Source: Gammaproteobacteria bacterium (GTDB taxonomy: Bacteria; Pseudomonadota; Gammaproteobacteria; SZUA-140). Taken from it: 64,000 nucleotides of DNA. Position 1 is the first letter of the stretch; every line of letters starts with the position of its first letter. The notes beneath the pieces were generated by a model. The model saw nothing but the letters and a program-made list of their open reading frames with translations, ran no database searches and was not told the origin of the DNA. Below are positions 1,179-43,848 of the stretch, piece by piece. Position numbers and translations under genes: made by a program. The DNA is taken from assembly GCA_016712635.1 (NCBI GenBank), contig JADJQS010000006.1:511216-575215 (forward strand). The letters are read 5' to 3'.

Positions 1179-2288
1179 ATGTCCGAAGACGCGAAACTGA
1201 AGTCCATCCGCGCGCGCATCGATCAGATCGACGGGAAGCTGCAGGATCTGATCAGCGAGCGGGCCCGCTGCGCGCTCGAGGTGGCGCGGCTGAAGCAGAC
1301 ATCCGGCGACCTCGACTACTATCGGCCGGAGCGCGAGGCACAGGTCCTGCAGACCGTGATCGGTCGCAATCAGGGTCCGCTCGACGACGAGGTCGTGGCG
1401 CGCCTGTTCCGGGAGATCATGTCGGCCTGCCTGGCGCTGCAGCGTCCGATCGCCGTCGCCTACCTTGGGCCGGAAGGAACGTACACCGAGGCTTCGGTCT
1501 TCAAGCATTTCGGCCAGGAGGTGACGGCACGGCCTCTCGCCGCCATCGACGAGGTTTTCCGCGATGTCGAGGCGGGCGCCGTCGACTACGGCGTGGTCCC
1601 GATCGAGAATTCCTCTGAAGGGGCGGTCGACCACACGCTCGACATGTTCATGAGCTCGCCGCTCAAGATCTGCAGCGAGATCGAGCTGCGCATCCACCAC
1701 AACCTGCTGGGCAAGGCCGCGGACCTGGGTACCGTGAACCGGGTCTACGCGCATCAGATGGCGCTGGCGCAATGCCGCGAGTGGCTCAATGCGCACCTCT
1801 CCGGCGTCGAATGCGAGGCGGTCAGCAGCAATGCCGGGGCCGCGCGGCGCGCGCAGGACGAACCGGGCGCCGCGGCCATCGCCGGCGTCAATGCGGCCGC
1901 CATCTACGGACTGGATATCCTGGCGGCGAATATCGAGGACAAACCGGACAACACCACCCGCTTCCTGGTGATCGGGCGCAAGATCCCCGCGCCGAGCGGA
2001 CGGGACAAGACGTCACTGCTCGTCTCGACCACCAACCGGCCCGGCGCGCTCTTCCGGCTTTTGAAACCACTGGCCGAGCATGGTATTTCGATGACGCGCA
2101 TCGAATCACGGCCGTCGCGGCGGGAAATGTGGGAATATGTGTTCTTCATCGACATCGAGGGGCACGCGCAGGAAGAGAAGGTGGCCTCGGTGATCGGGAT
2201 CCTGGAAAATGAGGCCGCCATGCTCAAGGTGCTCGGTTCGTATCCGTGTGCGGTAGGGGACGGATTTCAAATCCGTCCCCATAAATGA
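1179..2288 (+). CDS. pheA: Bifunctional chorismate mutase / prephenate dehydratase with C-terminal ACT domain.
   Basis: N-terminal chorismate-mutase coiled-coil region, PDT domain (ESRPSRRE...), ACT domain. The last ~11 aa (GDGFQIRPHK) are encoded by a hairpin repeat. Confidence 0.9.
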   Translation: MSEDAKLKSIRARIDQIDGKLQDLISERARCALEVARLKQTSGDLDYYRPEREAQVLQTVIGRNQGPLDDEVVARLFREIMSACLALQRPIAVAYLGPEGTYTEASVFKHFGQEVTARPLAAIDEVFRDVEAGAVDYGVVPIENSSEGAVDHTLDMFMSSPLKICSEIELRIHHNLLGKAADLGTVNRVYAHQMALAQCREWLNAHLSGVECEAVSSNAGAARRAQDEPGAAAIAGVNAAAIYGLDILAANIEDKPDNTTRFLVIGRKIPAPSGRDKTSLLVSTTNRPGALFRLLKPLAEHGISMTRIESRPSRREMWEYVFFIDIEGHAQEEKVASVIGILENEAAMLKVLGSYPCAVGDGFQIRPHK

Positions 2289-2320
2289 GTCTGGGACAGA
2301 TTTTAATCTGTCCCAGACAC
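2256..2320. repeat. Two tandem GGGAC(A/G)GAT-family hairpins (ggggacggatttcaaatccgtcccc and ctgggacagattttaatctgtcccag). The first overlaps the pheA 3' end.
   Basis: Perfect 10-bp stems with TTCAAA / TTTTAA loops read directly. Likely terminator / REP-like. Confidence 0.7.
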
Positions 2321-2333
2321 CTTAATTAATCGG

Positions 2334-3362
2334 GTGCAACAAATGATCGTCATCATGAAGGCCAATTCGACCGACGCGCAGATCGAAGCCGTAGAGGGCC
2401 ATCTGCGCTCGCTCGGACTGCAGCCCCACACCTCGCGCGGCATGCAGCGCACCGTCGTCGGAGCGATCGGCGACGAACGCGAGATCGACCTTGACCGTGT
2501 CGGGGTGCTGGACGGCGTCGAGCGCGTCGTGCGCGTGATGAAGCCCTACAAGTTCGTCTCGCGCGAGTCGCACGAGCGCGATTCGGTCATCGACGTGAAG
2601 GGCATCCCGATCGGCGGCAGGACGATCCAGATCATCGGCGGACCCTGCTCGGTGGAGACGCCGGAACAGATGGAGGCCGCCGCCGCCGGCGTTGCCGCGG
2701 CCGGCTGCCGCCTGATGCGCGGCGGTGCCTTCAAGCCGCGCACCAGCCCGTATGCCTTCCAGGGCAAGGGCGTCGAAGGGTTGAGCATGTTCAAGGAGGC
2801 CGCGGGGCGCCACGGGCTGCCCATCGTCACCGAACTGATGGACGTGCGCATGCTGGATGTATTCCTGGAGCACAAGGTCGACGTGATCCAGATCGGCACG
2901 CGCAACATGCAGAACTTCGACCTGCTGAAGGAGGTCGGACGCAGCACCCACACCCCGGTGATCCTCAAGCGCGGCCTGTCGGCGACGATTTCCGAATGGC
3001 TGATGGCGGCCGAGTACATCGCCGCCGGCGGCAACCACAACATCATCTTCTGCGAACGCGGCGTGCGCACCTTCGAGGACGCCTATCGCAACATGCTCGA
3101 CGTCACCGCCGTGCCGATGCTGAAGCGCGAGACCCACCTGCCGGTGCTGATCGATCCCAGCCACGCCGGCGGCAAGGCCTGGATGGTGCCGGCGCTGTCG
3201 CGCGCGGCGATCGCCGCCGGCGCGGACGGCCTGCTGGTGGAGATGCATCCCAATCCGCCCGCGGCGTGGTCGGACGCCGACCAGGCGCTCAATCCCCAGG
3301 AACTCGCCGCCCTGATGGGTGAGCTGCGCGGCATCGCAAGTGTGCTCGGACGCGAGCTCTGA
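2334..3362 (+). CDS. 3-deoxy-7-phosphoheptulonate (DAHP) synthase, class I-beta (KDO8P/DAHP family) with an N-terminal ferredoxin-like regulatory domain.
   Basis: Translation shows the N-terminal regulatory domain followed by a TIM-barrel with the GPCSVE and KPRTSPY motifs typical of Thermotoga/Aquifex-type DAHPS. Confidence 0.8.
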   Translation: MQQMIVIMKANSTDAQIEAVEGHLRSLGLQPHTSRGMQRTVVGAIGDEREIDLDRVGVLDGVERVVRVMKPYKFVSRESHERDSVIDVKGIPIGGRTIQIIGGPCSVETPEQMEAAAAGVAAAGCRLMRGGAFKPRTSPYAFQGKGVEGLSMFKEAAGRHGLPIVTELMDVRMLDVFLEHKVDVIQIGTRNMQNFDLLKEVGRSTHTPVILKRGLSATISEWLMAAEYIAAGGNHNIIFCERGVRTFEDAYRNMLDVTAVPMLKRETHLPVLIDPSHAGGKAWMVPALSRAAIAAGADGLLVEMHPNPPAAWSDADQALNPQELAALMGELRGIASVLGREL

Positions 3363-3400
3363 CGCGCCTTGCCAGGCCGACCGACCATTGCGCCCCGAAC

Positions 3401-4297
3401 ATGTCCCCTGACGCGCCAACCAGACGGCTGACCATCATCGGCGTCGGCCTGATCGGCGGATCGCTGGCGCGGGCGCTCAGGCGCGCATTCCCCGGCACCG
3501 AGATCATCGGCTCCGGGCGCCAGTTGCCCAACCTGCGGCGTGCGCTGGAGCTCGGCGTCATCGACCGCCACGAGACCGATCCGGCGCGCGCGGTAGAAGG
3601 AGCGGATCTGGTCGTGATTGCCGTACCGGTCGGGGCGATCGAATCCGTATTCGCCGCGATCGACGGGCATCTCGCGGCGGACGCGGTCATCACCGATGTC
3701 GGCAGTACGAAAGGCAATGTGGTCAGCTCTGCGCGGCGACGGCTCGGCGATCACCTGGCCGACTTCGTTCCCGGGCACCCGATCGCGGGCACGGAGCGCA
3801 GCGGCGTCGAGGCCTCGTTCGCCGAGCTGTTTCACGGCTGCCGGGTGATCCTGACGCCGCTCTCCGAGACGCGCCGCGCGGCGGTCGAACGCGTGCGCGC
3901 CGTATGGGAATGCGCCGGTGCGCGCGTGACCGAGATGGACGTGCGGCATCACGACGAGGTCCTGGCCGCCACCAGCCATCTGCCGCACCTGCTGGCCTAT
4001 ACGCTGGTCGACACCCTGGCGCGCATGGACGACAGCGAGGAGATCTTCGATTATGCCGCCGGCGGCTTCCGCGACTTCACGCGGATCGCCTCGTCGGACC
4101 CGGTGCTGTGGCGCGACATCTGCCTGGCCAATCGTGAGGCGATGCTCGGCATACTCCAGCGCTTCAGCGCAGACCTTGCCGGCATAGCCGAGGCCGTGCG
4201 CCGCGCCGACGGCGATCAACTGATGAAGGTGTTCGCGCACGCGAAGGAAGTGCGGGACCGGTTTTCCAAGAAAGGAACAGTGAGGAGTGAGGAGTGA
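3401..4297 (+). CDS. tyrA: Prephenate / cyclohexadienyl dehydrogenase.
   Basis: IIGVGLIGGSLARAL Rossmann motif and PDH domain. The stop lies within the repeat (..VRSEE*). Confidence 0.85.
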   Translation: MSPDAPTRRLTIIGVGLIGGSLARALRRAFPGTEIIGSGRQLPNLRRALELGVIDRHETDPARAVEGADLVVIAVPVGAIESVFAAIDGHLAADAVITDVGSTKGNVVSSARRRLGDHLADFVPGHPIAGTERSGVEASFAELFHGCRVILTPLSETRRAAVERVRAVWECAGARVTEMDVRHHDEVLAATSHLPHLLAYTLVDTLARMDDSEEIFDYAAGGFRDFTRIASSDPVLWRDICLANREAMLGILQRFSADLAGIAEAVRRADGDQLMKVFAHAKEVRDRFSKKGTVRSEE

Positions 4298-4378
4298 AGT
4301 GTGAGGCGCATAATATGGTGAGTGATATTGAGCATATTTCCTGTGTCGCCTCACTCCTCACGCCTAACGCCTCACCAA
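4280..4378. repeat. Heptamer-arm element copy B between tyrA and aroA.
   Basis: agtgaggagtgaggagtgaagtgtgaggcg ... gcctcactcctcacgcctaacgcctcacc. Supplies the tyrA stop codon. Confidence 0.8.
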
Positions 4379-4385
4379 TGCTGCG

Positions 4386-5762
4386 ATGACCACGAAAGAA
4401 CACATCTTCGATATCAGCCCCGGCGGCCGTCTAACCGGCGACATCCGCGTCCCCGGCGACAAATCCATCTCGCACCGCTCCATCATGTTCGGTTCGCTGG
4501 CGGAGGGCGTGACCGAAGTGGAAGGATTCCTCGAGGGCGAGGACAGCCTGGCGACCCTGGCGGCGTTTCGCCGCATGGGGGTCGTCATCGACGGGCCCGA
4601 ACGGGGCAGGGTCACCATTCACGGCGTCGGCCTGCGCGGCCTGCGGGCGCCCGATGGCCCGCTCGATCTAGGCAACTCCGGCACATCGATGCGTCTCATG
4701 TCTGGCCTGCTCATCGCGCAAGCTTTCGACACGGAACTGACCGGCGACGCCTCGCTGTCACGCCGGCCGATGCGCCGTGTGACGCAGCCGCTGGCATCGA
4801 TGGGGGCGCGCATCGAGACCGGGGATTCGGGTACGCCACCGCTGCGGATCCGTGGCGGATCCAGGCTGCACGGAGTGCGTTATGACATGCCGGTGGCGAG
4901 CGCCCAGGTCAAGTCAGCGCTGCTGCTTGCCGGACTCTATGCCGAAGGGGAGACCTGCGTGACCGAGCCCGCGCCGACGCGCGACCATACCGAACGCATG
5001 CTCACCGCCTTCGGCTATCTGGTCACGCGCCACCACAACACGGTCTGTGTGAAAGGGGGAGGTAGACTCAATCCGACCCGCATCGAGATCCCGGCGGACA
5101 TATCCTCGGCGGCATTCTTTATGGTCGGCGCCGCGATCGCGCCGGATTCTGACGTGACGCTGACAGGCGTCGGCATCAACCCGACACGCATCGGGGTCAT
5201 CAATATCCTGCAGCAGATGGGCGCGCGGATCGAGTTGATCGACAAACGCATGTACGGCGGCGAACCGGTGGCCGACCTGCGCGTGCGCACGAGCGCCCTC
5301 AAGGGGATCGAGATCCCGCTTGAACAGGTCCCGCTGGCGATCGACGAATTTCCCGCCCTCTTCATCGCCGCGGCCTGCGCCGAAGGGCGGACGGTCCTGG
5401 CCGGCGCGGAGGAACTGCGCGTCAAGGAGAGCGACCGCATCCAGGTCATGGCTGACGGGCTGCAGCTGCTGGGCATTGATGCGGAACCGACACCGGACGG
5501 GATCATTATTCACGGAAAGGGCGGAGCCGATGCCAGGGGGACGGATGTAAAATCTGTCCCCGAGGATGAAGCGGTGTTTTCCGGCGGCGAGATCCAGAGC
5601 CACGGCGACCACCGCATCGCCATGGCCTTCGCCATAGCCGCACTGCGCGCCTCGAGTCCGATCCGCGTCCGTGACTGCAAGAATGTCGATACCTCGTTCC
5701 CGGAGGTTGTGGAGTTGGCAAGGGGGGCAGAGCTGGGGGTACGTATGAGGGGTGAGGCGTGA
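4386..5762 (+). CDS. aroA: 3-phosphoshikimate 1-carboxyvinyltransferase (EPSP synthase). At 458 aa it is longer than typical; it contains a hairpin-derived internal insertion and a repeat-derived C-terminal tail.
   Basis: Conserved LGNSGTSMRL, RPMRR and HGDHRIAMAFA motifs. An internal GGGGACGGAT..ATCTGTCCCC hairpin sits at about 5535-5561 in frame. The tail ..VRMRGEA* is encoded by the repeat. Confidence 0.9.
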   Translation: MTTKEHIFDISPGGRLTGDIRVPGDKSISHRSIMFGSLAEGVTEVEGFLEGEDSLATLAAFRRMGVVIDGPERGRVTIHGVGLRGLRAPDGPLDLGNSGTSMRLMSGLLIAQAFDTELTGDASLSRRPMRRVTQPLASMGARIETGDSGTPPLRIRGGSRLHGVRYDMPVASAQVKSALLLAGLYAEGETCVTEPAPTRDHTERMLTAFGYLVTRHHNTVCVKGGGRLNPTRIEIPADISSAAFFMVGAAIAPDSDVTLTGVGINPTRIGVINILQQMGARIELIDKRMYGGEPVADLRVRTSALKGIEIPLEQVPLAIDEFPALFIAAACAEGRTVLAGAEELRVKESDRIQVMADGLQLLGIDAEPTPDGIIIHGKGGADARGTDVKSVPEDEAVFSGGEIQSHGDHRIAMAFAIAALRASSPIRVRDCKNVDTSFPEVVELARGAELGVRMRGEA

Positions 5763-5855
5763 GGAGTGAGGAGAAAGAGTACGTCGAGTGGATTCAGCCT
5801 TCTGCCAATCAGATTCCGGTTTTTCGCCTCACGCCTACCCCTCACGCTTCACCTG
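5745..5855. repeat. Heptamer-arm element copy C between aroA and cmk.
   Basis: atgaggggtgaggcgtgaggagtgagg ... cgcctcacgcctacccctcacgcttcacc. Confidence 0.8.
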
Positions 5856-5898
5856 TAGTTTCGATATATAATGCAGTAAGTTACACTGAATTCTTGAT

Positions 5899-6585
5899 AT
5901 GGATACTCAAGACAAGGCGCCAGTCATCACGGTCGACGGTCCCGGCGGAGTCGGGAAGGGGACGGTCAGCCGGATCCTGGCCGGCAGGCTGGGCTGGCAC
6001 TTGCTCGACAGCGGCGCCCTCTATCGCCTGGTCGGCCTGAGCGCGCTGAGACGGGGTGTTGCACTCGCGAACGAGGCGGCGGTGGCCGCGCTCGCCATGA
6101 ATCTGGATGTGAATTTCACCGGTAACAGCGATGAGAACGCGGTTATCACTCTTGGTAACGCCGACGTGAGCGATGCAATCCGCGCTGAAAATGTCGGATC
6201 GGCCGCTTCCCGGGTCGCCGCCTTGCCCGCCGTTCGCCAGGCCTTGCTGGAGCGGCAGCGCCGGTTTCGCCAGCCCCCGGGGCTCGTGGCCGATGGCCGC
6301 GATATGGGGACAGTGGTCTTTCCGGATGCCCAGCTCAAGGTGTTTCTCCAGGCCAGCCCGGATGAGCGCGCATCAAGGCGCTATAAACAGTTGAAGGACA
6401 AGGGAATCAGTGTTAGTCTAAGTGCCCTTCTGAAGGAAATTGAAGAACGTGACATGCGGGACAGCGGTCGTCGGATAGCACCGATGAAGCCGGCAGAGGG
6501 CGCCGTCATGATCGATACCACCCATATGGGTATCGAAGAAGTGGTGGACAGTATCCTGCAGGCGTGGGAAATCCGCACGTCATGA
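5899..6585 (+). CDS. cmk: Cytidylate kinase.
   Basis: P-loop [11 protein letters not shown]. Conserved position upstream of rpsA. Confidence 0.9.
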
Positions 6586-6752
6586 AAAACCGGGAAACCG
6601 TATTCTTCAAGCCGTTTCTGAAGCTTAGATAAAGGTGCCCACCGCCGGGACATGCATCCCGCGGCGAGGCGTATGTTAAATCGTCTGCATTCGCAGATAT
6701 AACCAAGGGAATTGCCCGTCGCCAGCCGCCGCGGCAAGGAAACGTAAACCCA

Positions 6753-8429: not shown

Positions 8430-8533
8430 GCGATGCGATGAACCCACAGGGACGTGGGTATCCGCGCGGGTGGTGCAGGGTTTCGTTGGATAACGGGTTG
8501 TTAGGGATAATTCCGGTATTGGGGGCCACTGTA

Positions 8534-8872
8534 ATGACGAAATCAGAACTAATAGAAATAATCGCGCAACGACAGAAACACCTTTCCTACAAGGACATCG
8601 AGTTCGCTGTAAAGACGATGATCGAACAGATGGCGCAGTCGCTTGCGAGCGGCGAGCGCATCGAAATACGCGGCTTCGGCAGTTTTTCCCTGCATTTCCG
8701 CCCCCCCAGAATGGGGCGTAATCCCAAGACCGGCGAGGCCGTGCCTCTGGCCGGCAAGCACGTGCCGCATTTCAAGCCGGGAAAGGAACTGCGCGAACGC
8801 GTCAACCGCGGTGCGGCGCAGGAAAAGACCAAGACTGCCGGCCAGCAGGCGATGACAAGGGAAATGCAGTAG
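8534..8872 (+). CDS. ihfB: Integration host factor beta subunit (HU/IHF family) with a C-terminal extension.
   Basis: [11 protein letters not shown]...[15 protein letters not shown] motif. The internal ATG at about 8534 is preferred over the ORF-track start 8438. Confidence 0.8.
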
Positions 8873-8928
8873 GGCATTGTCACTGCCCGGCCGCCGCGCC
8901 GGTCGCAAACCCGTGTCGATGAGGGCGG

Positions 8929-9222
8929 ATGAAGCGCATAATCAGTCTGGTATTCTTCCTGATCGTGCTGATCTGCGGCCTTTTCTTCGGATTGCTGAAC
9001 GCGGATTCCGTCAGGATCGACTATTACATCGGTGCGCGTGAACTCCCCCTCTCGCTGGTCCTCGTCCTCGCGCTCCTTGCGGGCGCCGTGTGCGGAGTGC
9101 TGGCCGCGCTGGGGATGATCTTCAGGAAGAACCGCGAGATCGCGCGGTTGCGCAAGGAGATCAAGATCACCGGCAAGGAACTCAGCAACCTTCGCGCGCT
9201 CCCCTACCAAGACGAACGCTGA
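8929..9222 (+). CDS. lapA: LPS assembly protein LapA (DUF1049 inner-membrane protein).
   Basis: Two TM helices plus a basic C-terminus. Immediately upstream of lapB, overlapping it as TGATG. Confidence 0.7.
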   Translation: MKRIISLVFFLIVLICGLFFGLLNADSVRIDYYIGARELPLSLVLVLALLAGAVCGVLAALGMIFRKNREIARLRKEIKITGKELSNLRALPYQDER

Positions 9223-11487: not shown

Positions 11488-11507
11488 TTCGGGCGCAGAT
11501 AACACAT

Positions 11508-11546
11508 GGCATGACGGCCCCGCCAAGGCGGGGCCGTTTTTTTATC
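11508..11546 (+). terminator. Rho-independent terminator after the comEA-like gene.
   Basis: cggccccgccaaggcggggccg followed by a T7 run. Confidence 0.65.
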
Positions 11547-12858: not shown

Positions 12859-14388
12859 ATGATCATCCAACCGGTCATCCTGTCAGGCGGCTCGGGTACC
12901 CGTCTGTGGCCGCTGTCGCGGGAACATTATCCCAAGCAGTTACTGGCCCCTGTCAGCGACCTGACCCTGCTGCAGTCCACTGTCAACCGCCTGGATCACC
13001 TTGAGGCGATGCAGGATGTCCGGATCGCCGCCCCGCTGGTCATCTGCAACGAGGAACACCGTTTTCTGGTGGCCGAGCAATTACGCCAACTGGGTAAGCC
13101 GCCTGGCCAGATCCTGCTCGAGCCGGTCGGACGGAATACCGCGCCGGCGGCCACCCTGGCGGCCCTGCATGCCGGGGACAGGGGCGCCGTGCTGTTGATC
13201 ATGCCGGCCGACCACCTGATACGCGACGAGGCGGCCTTTAGCCGGGCTGTAATCATTGGTGCGCGGCTGGCTTCGGCTGGCCAGGTCGTCACCTTCGGTA
13301 TCCTGCCGACACGCGCCGAGACCGGTTATGGCTACATCCACAAGGGCGCTGCCCTTGCGGGTGAGGCGTCAGGCGCGAGGCGTGAAGCGGTAGGGAAGGG
13401 AGCACTTTCACCTGACACCTCTCGCCTGACGCCTCACCTCATAGAACAGTTCGTTGAAAAGCCGGATGCCGCCACGGCGCAATCCTATCTCGACTCCGGA
13501 GAATATCTCTGGAACAGCGGCATCTTCATGGTGCGCGCCGCGGTGTGGCTGGAAGCGATCATGCGCCACCGCCCGGACATTTATTCCGCTGCGGAGCAGG
13601 CGTACACGAGCGGCAAGCAGGACGGAGACTTCTACCGCGTGGACAAGAAACTGTTCGCCACGTGCCCCAGCGACTCCATCGACTACGCCGTCATGGAAAA
13701 GCTCACCGCCTCCATCTCCTCACCCCTCACGCCTGACGCCTCACCGATAACCGCGGCGGTGATCCCGCTGGATGCCGGCTGGTCGGACGTCGGCGCCTGG
13801 TCCAGCCTGTGGGAGGTCTCGCCGCAGGACGCCGACGGCAATATCCTGCGTGGCGACGTCATCGCTGAAGACACTCGCAATTCCCTCCTGTACGCCGAGC
13901 ACCGCCTGCTCGCCGGCGTAGGCCTTGATAACATTATTGCGATCGAGACCGCCGACGCCATCCTGGTCGTGCACAAGGACAAGGCGCAGAACGTGAAGGA
14001 TATCGTCGCCCACCTGAAGAAGCAGGGGCGCAGCGAGCACCAGATCCACCGCCGCGTACATCGTCCATGGGGCAGCTACGAAGGCATTGACAAGGGGGAA
14101 CGTTTCCAGGTCAAGCGTATCACGGTCAAGCCGGGTGCTTCGCTCTCCCTGCAGATGCACCACCATCGCGCCGAGCACTGGATTGTCGTGAAGGGGACCG
14201 CCCGCGTCGTGCGCGGGGACGATGAATTCCTGCTCAGTGAAAACGAGTCCACCTATATCCCGATCGGGGTCACCCACCGCCTGGAGAATCCGGGAACGCT
14301 CCCGCTCGAACTGATCGAGGTTCAGTCGGGATCATATCTTGGGGAAGACGATATCGTCAGGTTCGAGGATCACTACGGAAGGAAGTGA
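12859..14388 (+). CDS. manC: Bifunctional mannose-1-phosphate guanylyltransferase / mannose-6-phosphate isomerase (ManC/CpsB type). Carries two in-frame repeat-derived insertions.
   Basis: N-terminal nucleotidyltransferase (ILSGGSGTRLWPLS) and C-terminal cupin (QMHHHRAEHWIVV). 509 aa versus about 480 typical. Confidence 0.9.
   Translation: MIIQPVILSGGSGTRLWPLSREHYPKQLLAPVSDLTLLQSTVNRLDHLEAMQDVRIAAPLVICNEEHRFLVAEQLRQLGKPPGQILLEPVGRNTAPAATLAALHAGDRGAVLLIMPADHLIRDEAAFSRAVIIGARLASAGQVVTFGILPTRAETGYGYIHKGAALAGEASGARREAVGKGALSPDTSRLTPHLIEQFVEKPDAATAQSYLDSGEYLWNSGIFMVRAAVWLEAIMRHRPDIYSAAEQAYTSGKQDGDFYRVDKKLFATCPSDSIDYAVMEKLTASISSPLTPDASPITAAVIPLDAGWSDVGAWSSLWEVSPQDADGNILRGDVIAEDTRNSLLYAEHRLLAGVGLDNIIAIETADAILVVHKDKAQNVKDIVAHLKKQGRSEHQIHRRVHRPWGSYEGIDKGERFQVKRITVKPGASLSLQMHHHRAEHWIVVKGTARVVRGDDEFLLSENESTYIPIGVTHRLENPGTLPLELIEVQSGSYLGEDDIVRFEDHYGRK
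13360..13440 (+). repeat. Complete heptamer-arm element inserted in frame inside manC (about 81 nt, encodes GEASGARREAVGKGALSPDTSRLTPHL).
   Basis: ggtgaggcgtcaggcgcgaggcgtgaagcg..cctgacacctctcgcctgacgcctcacctc. TGA triplets of the left arm are mutated or out of frame. Confidence 0.75.
13727..13746 (+). repeat. Right-arm (CCTCAC) fragment in frame inside manC (encodes SSPLTPDASP).
   Basis: tcctcacccctcacgcctgacgcctcacc. The corresponding segment is absent from typical ManC between the MEK and VIPLDAGWSD blocks. Confidence 0.65.
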
Positions 14389-14566
14389 GGCGTGAGGGGG
14401 CAGGTGTGAGGCGAAAATACTAACTATGGGAGGTCTGATTAATTCGTCATGCCCGCGCAGGCGGGCATCCAGGTCCTTGAATTACTGGTTTCCCGCTTTC
14501 GCGGGAATGACAACCAGGTAATTATTCAGGTTTCCCTAACGCCTAACACCTAACGCCTCACCAACA
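14385..14566. repeat. Composite element between manC and gmd. Heptamer-arm element (arms at 14385-14418 and 14535-14566) with a CCCGC double-hairpin element nested in its loop (14446-14511).
   Basis: agtgaggcgtgagggggcaggtgtgaggcg ... gtcatgcccgcgcaggcgggcat..ttcccgctttcgcgggaatgac ... cctaacgcctaacacctaacgcctcacc. Confidence 0.8.
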
Positions 14567-14578
14567 AAGAGGTTAGCC

Positions 14579-17088: not shown

Positions 17089-17139
17089 TCCGGAGGCTGG
17101 AATCTGTTTCAAAATTGATGATAGGCGGAAACAGCAGGC

Positions 17140-17222
17140 GTCGTCCCCGCGAAAGCGGGGATCCAGTGGCTTTAAGCCGATGAAAAGCAGAAACACTGGA
17201 TTCCCGCTTTCGCGGGAATGAC
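17140..17222. repeat. CCCGC double-hairpin inverted element, copy 2, between fcl and gmhB.
   Basis: gtcgtccccgcgaaagcggggatccag ... tggattcccgctttcgcgggaatgac. The same termini and architecture as 14446-14511. Confidence 0.75.
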
Positions 17223-17276
17223 GCATTTATCTTTCATTGCAAACATGCATTTCCAATTTTGAGATAGGTTCCAGTT

Positions 17277-19269: not shown

Positions 19270-19348
19270 GGGGACAGATTTTTATCTGTCCCCCGATATC
19301 GCAATGATGCCAGTACGCCTCACACCTAACGCCTCACACCTCACGCTC
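19270..19348. repeat. GGGGACAGAT hairpin (19270-19294) followed by a right-arm-only CCTCAC repeat block (19315-19348).
   Basis: ggggacagatttttatctgtcccc ... gcctcacacctaacgcctcacacctcacgctcg. Confidence 0.75.
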
Positions 19349-35505: not shown

Positions 35506-35559
35506 GATAATGGCGAAAATAATCTTCAGTTGCATGCCCACTATTCAAGAGACATGTGA

Positions 35560-36744: not shown

Positions 36745-36797
36745 AGCTTCAATAATAAAAAAACCCAAACCAAATCAGTCAGTACGGTTGGGATTAT

Positions 36798-38681
36798 ATG
36801 GTCCAAGAGGAAAAGGCTTTGGCAGCAAGACGCCGTGTGGCAATTGTTGTACATGATATAAGCATGGTCGCGGCTGCCTGGTTTCTGGCATACCTGACCC
36901 GCTATAACTTCAATATTCCAGCAGTAGTCTGGCCCATCCTGGGGCAAACCCTGCCCTTGGTATTGGCGATACAGGGTCTGATCCTGTGGCGTTTCGGCCT
37001 CTACCGCGGGGTGTGGCGTTTCGCCAGCATACCCGACCTGTGGAACATCATCCGGGCCGTGGCGATCGGTGTATTCATCGTCGCTCTGGTGGAATTCCTG
37101 GTCAACCGGCTGGAAGGCATACCCCGCACGATACTCCTGCTCTACCCGGTATACCTCGTGCTTTTCCTGGGTGCGCCGCGCCTGACTTATCGCATCTGGA
37201 AAGATTACCGCCTCGGCTTACTGAACGGTGCCGACCGCAAGCGGGTGCTGATCCTGGGCGCCGGCCGGGCAGGGGAGATGCTGGCCCGCGACATGCGGCG
37301 CGACGGGAGCTACCAGCCGATCGGCTTCCTTGACGATCAACCCTCCCTCAGAGGATCCAAGGTGCACGACCTGCCGGTGCTGGGCGTAATCGAACGCCTG
37401 CCCGAAGTCGTCCATAGTCATGCCCTGGATCTGGTCATCATCGCGCTGCCATCGGCGACCAATAACCAGATGCGGCGGGTGGTGGAGATCTGCGAGCGGG
37501 CGGAGGTTGAATTCCGCACACTGCCGCGCCTGCAGGACCTGGTCTCGGGGCAGCCCACCGTCTCCGAGCTGCGCGAGGTCAAGATCGAAGACCTGCTCGG
37601 ACGCACGCCTATCACCCTGGACTGGAACCGCATCAGCAAGGGCCTGGCCGGACAGACGGTGCTGGTGAGCGGCGGCGGCGGGTCGATCGGCTCCGAGCTG
37701 TGCCGCCAGATCGCGCGCCTGCGGCCCGCCGCCCTGGTCCTGTTCGAGAACAACGAGTACAACCTGTTCGAGATCGAGCGCGAGCTGCGCGGCAAGCATC
37801 CCAACCTGGTGCTGCACGCCTATCTCGGCGACGTGCGCGACCGTGCCTCGGTGGTGCGCGCCTTTGAACGCTTCCAGCCCCAGGTCGTTTTCCATGCCGC
37901 CGCCTACAAGCATGTCCCCATGCTGGAATCCCAGGCCCGGGAGGCGGTGCGCAACAACGTGCTCGGCACCCGCCTGATGGCGCAGACCGCCGACCGTTTC
38001 GGCTGTAACGCCTTTGTCATGATCTCCACCGACAAGGCCGTGAACCCGGCCAACGTCATGGGCGCAACCAAGCGGGTGGCGGAGATCTACTGCCAGGCCT
38101 TCGCCCAGCGTTCGCGCACCCGCTTCATCACGGTGCGCTTCGGCAACGTCCTCGGCTCCGCCGGGAGTGTGATCCCGATCTTCCAGCAGCAGATCAAGGC
38201 CGGCGGGCCGGTGACCGTGACCCACCCGGACATCACGCGCTACTTCATGACCATTCCGGAGGCGGCGCAGCTCATCATGCAGGCGGCGGTAATGGGCGAG
38301 GGCGGGGAGATCTTCGTGCTCGACATGGGCGAGCCGGTCCGGATCGGATACCTGGCCGAGCAGATGGTCCGCCTGTCCGGCAAGACCCCCGGCGAGGACA
38401 TAGAAATCGTCTATACCGGGCTCCGGCCCGGCGAAAAATTCTACGAGGAATTGTTTTACGCGCAGGAGCAATATAAATCCACCGGGCATGATAAAATCCT
38501 GCTCGCGCATTCCGTCGTGGTGGACTGGCCCCTCCTGACGGCCGACGTGCGCGCAATCGAGGAAGCGGTGGAGCAGTATGATGAGGGGGAGGTTCACCGC
38601 CTGCTCGAACGGATTGTACCTGAGCTCGCCGCTCAACAATCGGTTTCCAATGTCATCCCCTTCGAACGTGCGAGCGTATGA
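36798..38681 (+). CDS. wbpM: Membrane-anchored UDP-GlcNAc 4,6-dehydratase (WbpM/CapD/PglF family).
   Basis: N-terminal 4-5 TM, then VLVSGGGGSIGSELCRQ Rossmann and MISTDKAVNPANVMGATKR. 627 aa. Confidence 0.85.
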   Translation: MVQEEKALAARRRVAIVVHDISMVAAAWFLAYLTRYNFNIPAVVWPILGQTLPLVLAIQGLILWRFGLYRGVWRFASIPDLWNIIRAVAIGVFIVALVEFLVNRLEGIPRTILLLYPVYLVLFLGAPRLTYRIWKDYRLGLLNGADRKRVLILGAGRAGEMLARDMRRDGSYQPIGFLDDQPSLRGSKVHDLPVLGVIERLPEVVHSHALDLVIIALPSATNNQMRRVVEICERAEVEFRTLPRLQDLVSGQPTVSELREVKIEDLLGRTPITLDWNRISKGLAGQTVLVSGGGGSIGSELCRQIARLRPAALVLFENNEYNLFEIERELRGKHPNLVLHAYLGDVRDRASVVRAFERFQPQVVFHAAAYKHVPMLESQAREAVRNNVLGTRLMAQTADRFGCNAFVMISTDKAVNPANVMGATKRVAEIYCQAFAQRSRTRFITVRFGNVLGSAGSVIPIFQQQIKAGGPVTVTHPDITRYFMTIPEAAQLIMQAAVMGEGGEIFVLDMGEPVRIGYLAEQMVRLSGKTPGEDIEIVYTGLRPGEKFYEELFYAQEQYKSTGHDKILLAHSVVVDWPLLTADVRAIEEAVEQYDEGEVHRLLERIVPELAAQQSVSNVIPFERASV

Positions 38682-39559
38682 CTTACAAGGTTACCAAGGC
38701 CGTATTCCCCGTGGCGGGAATGGGCACCCGCTTCCTTCCGGCCACCAAGGCCAATCCGAAGGAGATGCTCCCGATCGTCGACAAGCCGCTGATCCAGTAC
38801 GCCGCGGAAGAGGCGATCGCGGCCGGGATCAAGCAGCTGATCTTCGTCACCAGCAGCGCCAAGCGCTCCATTGAAGACCATTTCGACAAGAACTACGAAC
38901 TCGAATCCGAACTGATCGCGCGCAACAAGCGCAACCTGTTGCGCATGGTGCAGGACATCCTGCCCAATGGCGTTTCCTGCGCCTACATCCGCCAGCCCGA
39001 GGCGCTGGGACTCGGACACGCGGTGCTGTGCGCCCGCCCTGTGGTCGGCAACGAGCCTTTCGCGGTGATCCTCGCCGACGACCTGATCGACAACGGGAAC
39101 CACAGCTGCCTGTCGCAGATGGTGGACCTGTTTTCGGAGCGCGGCTGCAGCCTGCTGGGCGTGGAACAGATCGATCCGGCCGAGACGGACAAGTACGGCA
39201 TCATCACACCCAGGCCCTTGTCAGAGCGTATTTACCAGGCGGAGGCCATCGTGGAAAAGCCGCGTCCGGACGAGGCGCCGTCGGCGCTGGCGGTGGTCGG
39301 CCGCTACATCCTGACTCCCGGGATCTTCGATTACCTTGAGAACCTCGGCAAGGGGACCGGCGGCGAGATACAGCTCACTGACGCCATCGCACAGCTGATG
39401 GGCAGCGAAACGGTGCTGGCTTACGAATTCGACGGCATACGCTACGACTGCGGCAGCAAGCTCGGCTACCTCCAGGCGACGGTCGAATATGCCCTCAAGC
39501 ATCCCGACCTGCAGCAGCCGTTCCGCGAATACCTGCAGAAATTCAGCCTGATGGAATGA
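38678..39559 (+). CDS. galU: UTP-glucose-1-phosphate uridylyltransferase.
   Basis: KAVFPVAGMGTRFLPATKANPKEMLPIVDKPLIQY. Confidence 0.9.
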   Translation: MTYKVTKAVFPVAGMGTRFLPATKANPKEMLPIVDKPLIQYAAEEAIAAGIKQLIFVTSSAKRSIEDHFDKNYELESELIARNKRNLLRMVQDILPNGVSCAYIRQPEALGLGHAVLCARPVVGNEPFAVILADDLIDNGNHSCLSQMVDLFSERGCSLLGVEQIDPAETDKYGIITPRPLSERIYQAEAIVEKPRPDEAPSALAVVGRYILTPGIFDYLENLGKGTGGEIQLTDAIAQLMGSETVLAYEFDGIRYDCGSKLGYLQATVEYALKHPDLQQPFREYLQKFSLME

Positions 39560-39566
39560 AGAAGCG

Positions 39567-39597
39567 CGATGGGGACGGATCCAAATCCGCCCCCCAT
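39567..39597 (+). terminator. GGGGACGGAT-family hairpin after galU (imperfect palindrome gatggggacggatccaaatccgccccccatc).
   Basis: Read directly. No T-run, so it may be a REP-like or convergent terminator for galU/rne. Confidence 0.45.
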
Positions 39598-39610
39598 CGC
39601 GCCTGATACC

Positions 39611-42169
39611 CTAGTCCGACTCGCGGTCCTGTCGCGGACTTTCCGCCGGTGAGCGGGATTCAGCGGAGGGGGATGCCTGCGCCGGGGCAGCCGCCGCGGG
39701 TCGCTCTTGTTCCCGCTGTGAGGTGACCGCGGAGTGGAGCGAGTTGGGCCTGAAGTCCGGCTTGACCGGCTCCACCATGGAACCCGTCGGCGCCGCGAAG
39801 GTGATGGACGGGGCTGTATGCGGGGATGGTGCAGGTGCCTGAACCGCCGCCATCGGGGCCGTACTGATCACCGGCATGGATGCGGGTACCGCCGGGAGGT
39901 CGTTCCGTTCCGTCCGCACGCTTGCAGCAGACTCGACACCCTCAGCAGCGGCGCGCGCCGGTTCGGGCCGCGATTGCCCCGACGATTGGGGACGCGGACC
40001 GCCGCCGCCTTCCCCGGATCTGCCGGCAGCGTCACCGGAACCCTCGCGGCTCTGGGATCGGCGGCGTCCCCCGCGGCGTGAGCGCTGCCGGCCGGTACGC
40101 CCGCCGGAACCCTGCGCTCCATCGGCCGGGCGTTCACCCTGGCCCGGGCGTGTCTGGTCTGTCTGCACTTGCAACTGCTGCTGCACGGGCTCGGGCGAAG
40201 CCTCCTCTGCCGCAGCCTCATGCCGCGGCTCCGCCGGCGCTTTCTGGCGCGACGGATGTTCCCCGCTGTGCCGCCCGCCCGAGGCCGCTTGTCCGCCGCC
40301 GCGCCGCTGCTGCTGCGTACGTCCTCCGCGTCCCCCGCGCGTGCCCTGCCGGTCAGCGGAGCCTTCGCCGTTGCGCCGTTCTTTGCGCTCAGGGGAGGCG
40401 GTGGGCTGAACCACGGGTACCTCCGGCTTCGGGCTGCCGAACAGGGAAGTCCACATCTGTTTGATGAAACCGCCGCGCACCTCCACCTTGGGCGCGGTCT
40501 CCCGGGGCTGCTCACGGTATTCCATCGAATCTTCCGGGCGGCTGGCCGGGGCCGGCGTACGCGGCATGATGCCCCTCACGAGGGGGGCTTCCGCCACCGG
40601 CTTGGGCTGGGCCAGAGGAATGACGTCGGCCTTGACCTCGATCTCGCTGGCGAGCTCGTAGCTGGCCTTTTCCTCGGTTTCTGCCGGCAAATCCTCCTTG
40701 CGGAGGCGCTTGACCTCGAATTTGGGCGTCTCAAGGGCGGAGTTGGCGATGAGCAGGATCTTGATGCCCTGCCGCTTCTCGACCCGGCCGATCGCCTCGC
40801 GCTTCTCGTTGAGGAGGAAGGTCGCGACGTTGACCGGGACCTGGATGATCAGGCGGGCGGTGTTCTCCTTCATGGCCTCTTCCTCGATCACGCGCAGGAT
40901 CGACAGTGCGAGGGATTCGACGTTACGGATCGTGCCGAGCCCGTTGCAGCGCGGACAGATGCTGTAGGCGGACTCGCCCAGCGAAGGCCGCAGGCGCTGG
41001 CGCGACATCTCGAGCAGGCCGAAGCGGGAGATTCGCCCCATCTGGACGCGGGCACGGTCTTTCTTCAGCGCCTCCTTGAGGCGGTTCTCGACCTCGCGCT
41101 GGTTGCGCGCGGGGGTCATGTCGATGAAATCGATGACGATCAGGCCGCCGAGGTCGCGCAGCCGGAGCTGGCGGGCGATCTCGTCCGCTGCTTCCAGATT
41201 GGTGTTGAGGGCGGTTTCCTCGATGTCGCCGCCCTTGGTGGCGCGGGCGGAGTTGATGTCGATGGCGACCAGCGCCTCGGCGTGGTCGATGACCACGGCG
41301 CCGCCCGACGGAAGGCGGATCTCGTGGTGAAACGCCGCCTCGATCTGGCTTTCGATCTGAAAGCGGGTGAAGAGGGGGATCTCTTCCTGGTACAGCTTGA
41401 GCTTGGACAGGTTCTGCGGCATGACCTGCTGCATAAAATCGCGTGCGCGCTGGTACACCGCCGGGTCGTCGATGAGGATCTCGCCGATGTTCGGCCGCAG
41501 ATAGTCGCGGATAGCCCGGATGATGATGTCGCTTTCCTGGTAGATCAGGTAGGGGGCGCGGGTCTCATCGGAGCTGGAGGCGGCCTCGATGGCCTCCCAC
41601 ACGCGCACCAGATAGTCGAGGTCCCACTGGATCTCCTCGGCGCTCTTGCCGATGCCGGCGGTGCGCACGATGATCCCCATGCCGTCGGGGATCTCCAGGG
41701 CGTTGATGGCCTCGCGCATCTCGTTGCGGTCGTCACCCTCGATGCGGCGGGAGATGCCGCCGGCGCGCGGGTTGTTCGGCATCAGGACCAGGTAGCGACC
41801 GGCCAGGCTGATGAAGGTGGTGAGGGCGGCGCCCTTGTTGCCGCGCTCTTCCTTGACCACCTGGACAACGACTTCCTGTCCTTCTTTCAGGGCTTCGCGG
41901 ATTTCCACCCGGCGGTTGTCGTCCGGGCCGGCGTCGAAGACTGTGGGGGAGACTTCCTTCAGGGGGAGAAAACCGTGGCGGTCCGCACCGTAATCGACGA
42001 AGGCCGCTTCCAGGCTGGGCTCGACACGGGTGATGCGGGCCTTGTAGATGTTTGACTTTTTCTGTTCCCGCGACGGGGTTTCTATATCGAGATCGTAAAG
42101 ATACTGTCCGTCAACCAGCGCGACCCGCAACTCTTCCGGTTGAGTCGCATTAATCAGCATTCTTCTCAT
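39611..42169 (-). CDS. rne: Ribonuclease E (conserved N-terminal catalytic half; Arg/Pro/Gly-rich scaffold C-terminal half).
   Basis: 852 aa. N-terminus MRRMLINATQPEELRVALVDGQYLYDLDIE, S1 domain, DNase-I-like region. The C-terminal region is low-complexity RGG-rich. Confidence 0.9.
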   Translation of the reverse strand: MRRMLINATQPEELRVALVDGQYLYDLDIETPSREQKKSNIYKARITRVEPSLEAAFVDYGADRHGFLPLKEVSPTVFDAGPDDNRRVEIREALKEGQEVVVQVVKEERGNKGAALTTFISLAGRYLVLMPNNPRAGGISRRIEGDDRNEMREAINALEIPDGMGIIVRTAGIGKSAEEIQWDLDYLVRVWEAIEAASSSDETRAPYLIYQESDIIIRAIRDYLRPNIGEILIDDPAVYQRARDFMQQVMPQNLSKLKLYQEEIPLFTRFQIESQIEAAFHHEIRLPSGGAVVIDHAEALVAIDINSARATKGGDIEETALNTNLEAADEIARQLRLRDLGGLIVIDFIDMTPARNQREVENRLKEALKKDRARVQMGRISRFGLLEMSRQRLRPSLGESAYSICPRCNGLGTIRNVESLALSILRVIEEEAMKENTARLIIQVPVNVATFLLNEKREAIGRVEKRQGIKILLIANSALETPKFEVKRLRKEDLPAETEEKASYELASEIEVKADVIPLAQPKPVAEAPLVRGIMPRTPAPASRPEDSMEYREQPRETAPKVEVRGGFIKQMWTSLFGSPKPEVPVVQPTASPERKERRNGEGSADRQGTRGGRGGRTQQQRRGGGQAASGGRHSGEHPSRQKAPAEPRHEAAAEEASPEPVQQQLQVQTDQTRPGQGERPADGAQGSGGRTGRQRSRRGGRRRSQSREGSGDAAGRSGEGGGGPRPQSSGQSRPEPARAAAEGVESAASVRTERNDLPAVPASMPVISTAPMAAVQAPAPSPHTAPSITFAAPTGSMVEPVKPDFRPNSLHSAVTSQREQERPAAAAPAQASPSAESRSPAESPRQDRESD

Positions 42170-42780
42170 GTTTCAGCAATCCTTAAGTGGAACCATTCAC
42201 GCTGTTCAGCGCGGAATTGCTGAATCGTAACTGTATGCGGTGATCTTATGACATTACGTTTGCGCCAGCCTGTGTGCGAACATCATGATCGTGCACCGTA
42301 TCGTCTCAAATCGGTCAACAGTTCGTATTCAGCCTCACCCGCGCACGATGACGTGGATGGTTGTGTTAACTTTCCCGTTCGAAACACTGGGCTTCGAACA
42401 TCTTGTGCATTCATGTACCACATCGGACTCCCGGCACCATCCATCGTGAGGATGTGCCGCTGAATCCCTCTATAATCATTACATTGATTAGGAATGTTGA
42501 AGTTGTATTCAACCTTCCCGGTGACTGTTCCGCGTTTCCTCCCCAGCTCTGCGAAGGCGGCCGCGGACAGACGGGTCTCGGCCTCAGGACACTCGACCAC
42601 GCCTGTCACAAAGTCTTTCCAATGCACGTGTACCATGGCTGGCGAGGTGTCGGGCCGGCGTCCAAGGGACGGCCGGGCGGACAAATTTTATCCCACCCGC
42701 GATAAACGCCCTGCTAATATAGCAATGTTTTAAAGCAGCTTCAAACAGTTATCGTATACGGGCGGAGATACCCAAGGGAG
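42170..42780 (-). promoter_or_regulatory. Long rne 5' leader / divergent rne-rluC promoter region (about 610 nt).
   Basis: Non-coding gap between divergent rne (-) and rluC (+). By analogy with the E. coli 361-nt autoregulatory rne 5' UTR. Confidence 0.5.
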
Positions 42781-43734
42781 ATGAAAGAATCGAAGGCGGC
42801 GGCCCCCGCCGTGCGGGTGGTGGAAATCGAGCGCAGTCGCGGCGGGCAGCGCATCGACAATTTTCTGTTGACGCTGTTCAAGGGCGTACCGCGCAGCCAT
42901 GTCTACCGCCTGCTGCGCACCGGACAGGTGCGCGTCAACAAGGGGCGCATCAAACCCACCTACCGGCTCAACGTCGGGGACCAGGTGCGGATCCCTCCCG
43001 TGAGCTACTCCGAGTCCATGCCGGTGCGGGTCGATGATGACCGCAGGGCGGCCATCGAGGCGGTAGTGATCCACGAGGACGAAGACATCATGGTCCTCGA
43101 CAAGCCGGCCGGGATGGCGGTACACGGGGGCAGCGGCCTGCGCTTCGGGCTGATCGAGGCGTTGAAGTTGATGCGGCCCGACAGCCCTGACATCTCCCTG
43201 GTACACCGGCTGGACCGCTTCACCTCCGGCTGCCTGCTGGTGGCGAAGAACCGTGCCATGCTGCCCGCGCTGCAGGAACAATTCCGCACTGAACGCGTGG
43301 AAAAACAATATCTGACCCTGGTGAAGGGTCGCTGGCAGGGCGGAGCCCGTACGGTGACTCTGTCCCTGCACAAGGGCCGCCTGCAATCCGGAGAACGCAT
43401 GGTCCTGGTCGATGACGAGGAGGGGAATGATGCAGAAAGCCGTTTCATCCCCGTCGAGACCTTTGCCGTCGCCAGTCTGATGCAGGTGATGCTGAAGACC
43501 GGGCGCATGCACCAGATCCGCGTACACGCGGCCGGCGTGGGGCATCCGGTCGCCGGCGACGAGAAATACGGCGACCCTGACTTCAATCGCAGCATGCGCG
43601 ACTTCGGCCTGAAGCGGATCTTCCTCCACGCCCAGGCGCTCAGTTTTTACCATCCGCGCACCGGGCGCCTGATGAGCCTGTCCACCCCGCTGCCGGACAC
43701 CCTGCGCCAGGTGCTGGAGCGACTCCAGCAATAA
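42781..43734 (+). CDS. rluC: 23S rRNA pseudouridine synthase RluC (S4 domain plus RluA-family catalytic domain).
   Basis: RIDNFL S4 region, HRLDRFTSGCLLVAK catalytic Asp motif. Divergent from rne as in other gammaproteobacteria. Confidence 0.85.
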   Translation: MKESKAAAPAVRVVEIERSRGGQRIDNFLLTLFKGVPRSHVYRLLRTGQVRVNKGRIKPTYRLNVGDQVRIPPVSYSESMPVRVDDDRRAAIEAVVIHEDEDIMVLDKPAGMAVHGGSGLRFGLIEALKLMRPDSPDISLVHRLDRFTSGCLLVAKNRAMLPALQEQFRTERVEKQYLTLVKGRWQGGARTVTLSLHKGRLQSGERMVLVDDEEGNDAESRFIPVETFAVASLMQVMLKTGRMHQIRVHAAGVGHPVAGDEKYGDPDFNRSMRDFGLKRIFLHAQALSFYHPRTGRLMSLSTPLPDTLRQVLERLQQ

Positions 43735-43735
43735 A

Positions 43736-43848
43736 ATGGGGACAGATTTATTTATTGCGTGAAAAGGGGCGGATCCTGATCCGCCCCCTAATGTAATGTC
43801 GGTCAGTGTGCAAATTCATATTCAATAAATAAATCTGTCCCCATTTAA
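43736..43848. repeat. Nested inverted-repeat structure. A 24-nt perfect inverted repeat (aaatggggacagatttatttattg / caataaataaatctgtccccattt) encloses a GC hairpin (ggggcggatcctgatccgcccc).
   Basis: Read directly. Shares the GGGGACAGAT core with the hairpin family. Likely terminator / REP-like. Confidence 0.7.

Follow-up and report, generated by a model that had tools for sequence, protein, structure and literature searches.

The described systems closest to the repeat reported here are the repetitive extragenic palindromic (REP) elements and bacterial interspersed mosaic elements (BIMEs), whose recognition by REP-associated tyrosine transposases (RAYTs, TnpA-REP) depends on a GTAG tag at the 5′ side and on a stem with mismatches (PMC3479197). 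REPs occur near gene 3′ ends and inside open reading frames (ORFs), and their RNA hairpins stabilize upstream mRNA (PMC3479197, PMC3116915, PMC3733652, PMC12306157). Di Nocera et al. 2013 (PMC3733652) describe GTAG- and CGTC-tagged REP superfamilies in 8 phyla, located between unidirectional or convergent ORFs and with in-frame intragenic copies (uvrA, recB and others), along with untagged REP-like families that are left unclassified. The Rickettsia palindromic elements (RPEs; Ogata et al. 2000) are selfish palindromes lying in frame in unrelated housekeeping genes, in surface regions of the proteins, according to PMC10969869. The origin, spread and persistence of REP-like repeats are still debated, and the known systems are lineage-specific. 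Here we describe a hairpin-forming palindrome found in a 64-kb stretch of a gammaproteobacterial contig (JADJQS010000006.1; the whole stretch of 64,000 nt is called the window below). It is a real, sharply bounded and dispersed repeat, non-coding by origin, with lineage-specific gains, in-frame tolerance and a very wide host range. It stands out in being conserved to the letter in many phyla and in a phage, with no identifiable mobilizer; its function and movement we infer.

The unit was defined by scanning 596 Gb of sequence (one genome per GTDB species) with the pattern GGGGACRGAT-N(3-8)-ATCYGTCCCC, in which the loop was left free. Among the 133 matches listed, 102 have TT-N(0-2)-AA at these free positions; the true unit is therefore a perfect palindrome with 12-nt arms, GGGGACRGATTT(N0-2)AAATCYGTCCCC, 24–26 nt long and sharply bounded. 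Over 345 oriented half-units the information content is ∼2 bits inside and ∼0 directly outside the terminal GGGG/CCCC, where just a slight A-rich tendency 5′ and T-rich tendency 3′ is seen. The free R:Y arm positions are A:T in 96 of the 133 listed matches, G:C in 31 and mixed in 6, i.e. complementary in 127; with independent arms ∼51 mixed pairs would be expected. The same 25-mer is present in at least 120 stretches among the matches listed, while by an arithmetic estimate the strict pattern would turn up ∼0.03 times by chance in 596 Gb.

The window holds six short hairpins and one split long form, i.e. seven palindrome copies, and every hairpin copy listed by the first-pass annotation is indeed present. 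The 9-mer GGGACRGAT occurs 11 times, well above the expectation from shuffled sequence (1.28 ± 1.05 in 100 dinucleotide-preserving shuffles of the window, 0 of which reached 11). When the window was scanned for GGG...CCC hairpins of 8 or more pairs, the family copies and one weak unrelated site came up, nothing else; this specificity and the shuffle excess rule out a chance origin. An assembly or adapter artefact is ruled out by the orthologous sites in independent assemblies and by the copy that lies in frame in aroA. The copies are listed here with the strand where one is assigned and with predicted RNA folding energies:

2256–2280: copy 1, GGGGACGGATTTCAAATCCGTCCCC, a perfect palindrome GGGGACGGATTT-C-AAATCCGTCCCC; −18.7 kcal/mol
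2287–2320: copy 2, in tandem with copy 1; core CTGGGACAGATTTTAATCTGTCCCAG, CTGGGACAGATT-TT-AATCTGTCCCAG, 15 pairs; −23.8 kcal/mol
5537–5561, plus strand: copy 3, inside aroA; GGGGACGGATGTAAAATCTGTCCCC, in frame, read as (R)GTDVKSVP, residues 384–392
19270–19293: copy 4, GGGGACAGATTTTTATCTGTCCCC, GGGGACAGAT-TTTT-ATCTGTCCCC; −17.5 kcal/mol
39567–39599: copy 5, degenerate and imperfect; GCGATGGGGACGGATCCAAATCCGCCCCCCATCGC, core GGGGACGGATCCAAATCCGCCCCC at 39571–39594; −19.4 kcal/mol
43734–43846: split long form, 24-nt arms AAATGGGGACAGATTTATTTATTG and CAATAAATAAATCTGTCCCCATTT around a 65-nt interior; −53.9 kcal/mol
43764–43789: variant hairpin within the split form, AAGGGGCGGATCC-TG-ATCCGCCCCCT

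Predicted RNA stems thus span −17 to −24 kcal/mol in the short copies and reach −54 kcal/mol in the split form. The stem of copy 2 is extended (GAGTCTGGG.../...CCCAGAC), and copy 5 carries additional palindromic flanks, GCGAT/ATCGC. Copy 4 lies 10 nt past the stop codon of the APS-kinase gene (cysC), upstream of a co-directional CitMHS transporter gene; copy 5 is found where the galU-like gene and the minus-strand rne gene converge, and the split form lies between the rluC-like and HAD hydrolase genes. Its arms (43734–43757 and 43823–43846) are 100% complementary over 24 nt and enclose a separate hairpin, as had been described for the copy after rluC. Pfam confirms the neighbours as pheA, DAHP synthase, aroA, APS kinase, CitMHS, galU-like, rne, rluC-like and HAD hydrolase genes. 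No Rfam 15 family matched at its gathering score anywhere in the window, and permissive scans gave generic hairpin matches only (≤24 bits, far under the gathering scores).

Two of the three reading frames of the palindrome are free of stop codons, and all three are if the centre base is C, so that it can survive in frame in protein surface loops and linkers; the encoded octapeptides are GTDLKSVP, GDRFxICP or GQISNLSP. The window AroA reads ...ARGTDVKSVPEDEA..., and its relatives at 83–97% identity (448–469 aa) carry (R/K)GTD(L/V/F/I/P)(K/N)SVP at the same site, two of them with substituted variants (GADIKS; KSAP). In one relative (P0128/L262) the motif has largely decayed to EATSVPA and of the palindrome only GTCCCC is left. 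About 100 homologs at ≤73% identity (433–443 aa) have a short G-G-x-x-G loop and lack the motif, and a few have an intermediate GKGxxE..AVFSGGE loop, also without it. Aligned with the closest EPSP synthase of solved structure (5buf), AroA of the window is ∼10 residues longer exactly at the motif. The first-pass annotation had placed an in-frame copy in a region that is shorter in E. coli AroA, and its claim stands: only the close clade has the extra residues, the loop is shorter in 5buf, and the ∼100 more distant homologs lack the same residues, so that the refuting condition named by the annotation did not arise. At aroA the palindrome was genuinely inserted, in frame and in this clade only, into a loop that existed before.

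Constraint at this site seems to extend to the nucleotide level, which can be examined because the synonymous positions of the palindrome are paired with one another. In 8 genomes the codons of the aroA palindrome stay GGG, GAT, AAA, GTC and CCC, and the Thr and Ser codons stay ACR and TCY. Codon usage in these same genes is 25% for GGG, 26% for CCC, 33% for GAT and 4% for TCT, and elsewhere in aroA 33% of codons with an invariant amino acid keep their third base. The synonymous sites thus suggest nucleotide-level constraint or homogenization. In one aroA gene (L257 11152–11197, GCA_016716465.1) a second, solo right arm TCTGTCCCC follows in frame 12 nt past the hairpin, a half-unit duplication within the coding region (...KSVPNGATSVPEH...) that is also seen in P0126.

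The situation at pheA is different. The window pheA ORF, 1179–2288, ends ...YPCAVGDGFQIRPHK*, with copy 1 read as the codons G-D-G-F-Q-I-R-P. All of the 120 best PheA homologs end ...LGSYPxAVL* or in a close variant, and GDGFQIRPHK is present in none of them. A metagenome contig whose PheA is identical over 359 residues (L001) ends ...GCGGTGTTGTAG, followed directly by GGGACGGATTTCAAATCCGTCCCC; at the same junction the window reads ...GCG-----GTAGGGGACGG.... The alignment gives the following feature:

2250–2255, plus strand: site where 5 nt (GTGTT, as in L001) are deleted, with loss of pheA's conserved last codon, for Leu, and of its TAG stop

Without this Leu codon and stop, the pheA reading frame extends into a hairpin that predates the deletion; in six relatives (L001, L002, L257, L258, L259 and L260) the G of the TAG stop codon is the first base of the hairpin. 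Insertion of the repeat into the pheA coding sequence, which we considered, is ruled out by the 5-nt deletion relative to L001 and by the homolog termini. The read-through into copy 1 is then, as far as the alignment tells, a secondary accident of the deletion. The first-pass annotation was right that the ORF ends in GDGFQIRPHK, whereas its reading of these residues as a repeat-encoded PheA terminus has to be changed, what is translated being an intergenic hairpin reached by deletion.

Eight syntenic relatives (L002 and L257–L263) allow the history of the copies to be traced. All eight have the aroA copy (largely decayed in L262). Two post-pheA copies are present in most relatives, one only in L259 and none in L261 and L262; copy 2 is kept, partly decayed, in L002, L257, L258 and L260, and the pheA-side copies of L257 and L259 share a compensatory T:A to C:G change. 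In L261 (961–1419) the place of the hairpins between pheA and the DAHP synthase gene is taken by a 152-aa ORF with no Pfam hit. Orthologous copies persist across ∼18% nucleotide divergence. In other genomes, the spacers between ahcY and metF are filled or empty by species (L081, L071, L115). These spacers, the aroA insertion and L262 with its lack of post-pheA copies show lineage-specific gain, as read from the sequence comparisons.

Beyond the window the palindrome is mostly extragenic. By crude ORF calls at least 75 of 128 copies are intergenic, vs ∼8% of the DNA, and of the remaining, ORF-overlapping copies many are no more than 100 nt away from the end of an ORF. Several loci have in-frame copies inside genuine genes, with Pfam domains on both sides:

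L055: RecG, VGTDLKSVP, between the wedge and helicase domains
L016: cytochrome b, LGTDLKSVP
L017: FlgJ, two copies, in the linker
L100: FabF-like synthase, GDRFQIRPQ
L098: VIT-VWA protein, in-frame copy

No gene family is linked to the copies: the 143 nearest-neighbour proteins fall into 186 families by the clustering used, of which no family exceeds 2 members or is that of a transposase, and all-against-all clustering of 3,509 ORFs returned housekeeping families only (ABC ATPases, IF-2, TonB receptors). The ORFs between hairpin pairs are ordinary genes. In one metagenome-assembled genome (MAG) of the window's clade, SJ243, a pair resembling a RES toxin and an Xre antitoxin by eye lies between two palindrome copies (L063 143–1629).

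The host taxa, taken from record titles, are diverse. Many are uncultured Gammaproteobacteria, with Thiohalobacter, Thioalkalivibrio, Thiogranum, Woeseiaceae and Halieaceae among the carriers and Marinobacter gelidimuriae, Marinobacter sp. ELB17 and Halorhodospira abdelmalekii among the isolates. Others are Syntrophia (Syntrophales/Syntrophaceae), Desulfobacteraceae, several Nitrospirae (Nitrospirota) and Entotheonella; a Coprothermobacterota MAG carries the palindrome on six contigs, and Chloroflexota, Omnitrophota, Thermoanaerobaculia, Salibacteraceae and Clostridia are represented by single MAGs. The carrying loci range in GC content from 0.29 to 0.68, and in several carrier MAGs the copies are spread over 3–6 separate contigs. 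The palindrome is not universal, as it is absent from 5,426 E. coli genomes and from 50,697 cultured phage records, while 795 kb of metagenome contigs encoding RluC relatives (∼50% identity) have eight stray half-sites only and no hairpin, and 72,556 plasmids gave one true match, between two liu-operon genes of a Marinobacter sp. M3C plasmid. Searching the literature for the palindrome as DNA or for its peptides brought up nothing of relevance, and GGGGAC/GTCCCC is not mentioned in the main text of two REP surveys (PMC3733652, PMC12306157).

Viral contigs are also among the carriers, the exact 25-mer occurring in 15 stretches of IMG/VR. One 54-kb contig (IMGVR_UViG_3300033489_000011; L207, L208, L214) is a genuine lambda-like phage, which encodes a portal protein, an S49 protease, gpD, capsid E and a neck protein. 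In the 18 kb of it that were examined we found at least 13 exact or near-exact copies, mostly between head genes, at a density about six times that of the window. A phage protein encoded between two copies (L207 5916–6959) was considered and set aside: by its composition it seems to be structural, and neither PDB nor Pfam returned a match. The long arm GGGGACAGATTTATTT has 36 matches in viral contigs, which is by our estimate not clearly above chance for a 16-mer, save at two repetitive loci.

We consider it probable that the hairpins form an untagged, REP-like, non-autonomous family of ultra-short palindromic interspersed repeats that is spread in trans. Non-autonomous spread would proceed through a single-stranded hairpin intermediate, acted upon by a sequence-specific enzyme encoded elsewhere. 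The enzyme would most likely be of the HUH/Y1 type, since such enzymes insert without target duplication, and it or the palindrome may have moved horizontally between phyla, possibly on phages. In transcripts, the 10–12 bp stem could serve as a stable 3′ hairpin that impedes 3′ exonucleases or attenuates read-through; such a role, which would not be that of a canonical intrinsic terminator, is suggested by likeness to E. coli REPs.

Several observations weigh against this explanation. No mobilizing enzyme was found: phmmer searches of 2.2 Mb of sampled loci with IS200 TnpA and E. coli RAYT, as approximate query sequences, returned nothing, although a single-copy gene would rarely fall within such a sample and <1 match would be expected by chance. 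Letter-for-letter identity across phyla is unlike the vertically inherited REPIN-RAYT systems, and Y1 transposases require mismatches in the stem, where the stems seen here are perfect. Most of the non-gammaproteobacterial hosts are MAGs, and some of their labels may be binning errors. Between the window and L002, compared over 12 kb at 82% nucleotide identity, there are no filled/empty differences; the window copies must therefore be old, and the activity of the palindrome, if any, slow. The frozen synonymous sites in aroA may reflect a selected host function or a protein-binding site, and the codon test itself, with 3 of 4 strictly comparable codons invariant vs a 33% background, is suggestive only.

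A second possibility, which we hold more tentatively, is that GGGGACRGATTT(N)AAATCYGTCCCC is an undescribed selfish palindrome, or the recognition site of some mobile protein not yet known, passed horizontally across phyla by a mechanism distinct from both RAYT/REP and DDE MITEs (miniature transposable elements with inverted repeats). The grounds for a distinct mechanism are the missing tag, the perfect stem, the lack of target duplication, the nested or flush palindromic growth and the dense colonization of a phage. With regard to such growth, further palindromy of at least 6 nt lies flush with the element in 17 of 166 copies vs 3 of 3,320 controls, and several of these flanks are alike (GAAAWT). 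Insertion into the loops of pre-existing hairpins was considered as its source; the flank palindromy is flush, with no leftover loop bases seen. At least equally likely are a subfamily with longer arms, half-units duplicated locally (L259, L257, L125) or template switching at the hairpin. If the palindrome were selfish or a mobile protein's site, an 8-residue peptide (GTDLKSVP or GDRFxICP) would be repeatedly written into essential proteins, and mobilization would be open to experiment in the cultured Marinobacter strains.

Canonical REP/BIME elements, served by one RAYT per genome and inherited vertically, share much with the palindrome: they are short, palindromic, multi-copy and extragenic, they form tandem clusters (as do the two copies after pheA), they cause no target duplication, and REPs inside ORFs are documented. 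In addition, the window has CGTC-tagged REP dimers at 14445–14512 and 17139–17223, so that REP machinery is probably present in the organism. The first-pass annotation called the hairpins REP-like, and this stands insofar as they are short, palindromic, multi-copy and mostly intergenic near 3′ ends; it fails for the tag and the stem. Of 166 copies, 4 have a GTAG and 1 has a CGTC no more than 7 nt away, the expectation from matched random positions being 2.7 and 6.8, i.e. the tags are at background. The stems are perfect, whereas RAYT binding needs a mismatch or bulge, and the same sequence in many phyla conflicts with vertical, lineage-specific classes. The RAYT search of the 2.2 Mb of sampled loci, in which approximate queries gave no match, is weak evidence in the same direction. 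Taken together, we regard an assignment to canonical REPs as unlikely.

Other repeats were seen in the window. The hairpin dimers at 17139–17223 and 14445–14512 (CGTCGTCCCCGCGAAAGCGGGGAT... facing ...ATTCCCGCTTTCGCGGGAATGACG) fit the CGTC superfamily as described in PMC3733652. Arrays of the heptamer GTGAGGC face inverted GCCTCAC arrays and form long imperfect inverted repeats (4280–4375, 13360–13438, 14386–14415/14537–14561, 44547–44712, 45788–45966 and 49468–49539); one such pair brackets a CGTC REP dimer, and heptamer arrays fill the post-pheA spacer in L262 and L002. The organism carries at least three interspersed repeat families. A 392-aa ORF between heptamer arrays (44708–45886, minus strand) was discarded as a probably spurious antisense ORF, being a low-complexity, repeat-derived translation that overlaps a 335-aa ORF on the plus strand.

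About as improbable as a canonical REP, in our estimate, is the explanation that the copies are not selfish DNA at all, being duplex binding sites (inverted 12-nt half-sites, some of them arrayed) of a mobile or widely conserved DNA-binding protein with a roadblock, nucleoid or phage regulatory function. It would account for the exact sequence that is kept, beyond pairing, across phyla and at the synonymous sites of aroA, where stem-breaking A:C combinations are tolerated, as well as for the half-site arrays, direct and inverted (L125, L017, L039, L259), and for the 13 or more copies between the head genes of the lambda-like phage. It fits poorly with copies after unrelated housekeeping genes and within coding regions, which have no common regulon, and with the arm-to-arm covariation and compensatory change, which favour a hairpin or a copy mechanism; there is also no candidate protein.

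Arrayed or onion-like half-units are found in L017 (2810–2885), L075 and L125, and in L259 (7593–7640) the unit 'pheA stop codon + left arm' is duplicated in tandem (GCTATAGGGGGCGGACT / GCTGTAGGGGACGGACT). The latter suggests that hairpin-promoted slippage may make half-site arrays. In L249 (3640–3915) the solo unit AAAATAAATCTGTCCCC occurs four times, interleaved with long runs of TTTTGTCC, and in L039, L006 and L118 words of GGGGAC/GTCCCC cluster around the hairpins.

The longer forms raise the question of a DDE-type insertion sequence (IS) or MITE, from which the palindromes would be deletion derivatives reduced to the terminal inverted repeats (GGGGACAGATTT..., with ends GGGGACAGATTTATTT...). 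Arms of 19–24 nt (GGGGACAGATTTATTTATT) surround 40–70 nt in the window (43734–43846), twice in L087 (2820–2920 and 6117–6215) and in L125, and solo ends AAAATAAATCTGTCCCC exist. The interiors of these long forms are mutually unrelated even at an orthologous site, and they are thus not copies of one MITE. Target-site duplication is absent, as flush direct repeats of k≥3 are found in 7 of 166 copies vs ∼4 expected, which demonstrates none. No IS with such ends, and no parent IS with palindrome ends, was found in the 72,556 plasmids or beside any copy, and the cultured phages and E. coli genomes gave no parent IS either. A length of 25 bp is moreover too short for synapsis by a DDE transposase, and we consider this origin very unlikely. 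The ortholog of the rluC–HAD spacer in L125 (2458–2660; RluC 87% identical) has kept the outer 24-nt arms, while its interior is wholly different, with three left and two right half-units and a GC-rich hairpin. On this comparison the interior of the split form turns over fast.

As the first-pass annotation stated, the window copies lack a T-tract: none has a T-run 3′ on the sense strand, unlike the canonical terminator at 11513–11538. Co-option as 3′ stabilizers or terminators, with which it found the copies consistent, may be possible in that the stems are stable, though no T-tract follows them in the window. On the whole the observation of the annotation is confirmed and its interpretation holds in part; the sharing of the palindrome across phyla was not visible to it. 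In the family, 42 of 166 copies (25%) have on one side 5 or more T (or A) in a run within 8 nt, vs 7.6% of random positions, and 124 (75%) have no such run on either side. That the hairpins are ordinary factor-independent terminators sharing a stem by happenstance is hardly credible: most copies do sit at gene 3′ ends, T/A runs are enriched and a terminator scanner flags copy 2 on the minus strand, but copies also lie inside operons (pheA-aroG; Marinobacter liu) and in frame in essential genes, three quarters have no T-run, and convergence cannot yield identical 25-mers across phyla. The intrinsic terminator at 11513–11538 consists of GACGGCCCCGCC-AAGG-CGGGGCCGTT and a T-run; the same terminator is found in L002 (20468–20491) with compensatory stem changes, and T-tract terminators are thus in use in the organism.

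Identity in hosts of 29–68% GC, the lack of all known hallmarks of REP or MITE mobilization and tolerance in AroA, RecG and cytochrome b point to an unrecognized trans-acting enzyme or to a widely shared nucleic-acid-binding function. The palindrome also matters for annotation, since in MAGs it gives rise to small ORFs that are spurious and to changed gene ends, the extended pheA being an example, and it marks lineage-specific indels in conserved marker proteins.

Compared with known systems, the palindrome resembles the REP/BIME-RAYT systems of E. coli and Pseudomonas, including REPINs, in being a palindrome in the range of 20–40 nt, multi-copy, extragenic near 3′ ends, clustered and free of target duplication. 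It differs in having no unpaired GTAG tag, in its perfect stem and in its identity across phyla, and no RAYT flanked by it was found in the 2.2 Mb of sampled loci; it is not a canonical REP, because the tag and the mismatched stem, both tested, are absent. From the GTAG/CGTC superfamilies it differs in having neither tag, the CGTC dimers of the window being a separate family. Like the bacterial MITEs (Correia, ERIC, RUP, Nezha), it is apparently non-autonomous, is bounded by inverted repeats, folds as RNA and can lie within genes; unlike them, it has no interior in its short forms and unrelated interiors in its long ones. A MITE measures 50–500 bp, keeps its interior conserved, is flanked by target-site duplications and has a parent IS, and nothing of the kind is seen here. 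With the RPEs it shares insertion in frame into unrelated protein genes, here those for AroA, RecG, cytochrome b, FlgJ, a FabF-like synthase and a VIT-VWA protein. Whereas an RPE measures ∼100–150 bp, encodes 30–50 residues and is confined to Rickettsia, the palindrome measures 24–26 nt, encodes 8 residues and is found in many phyla.

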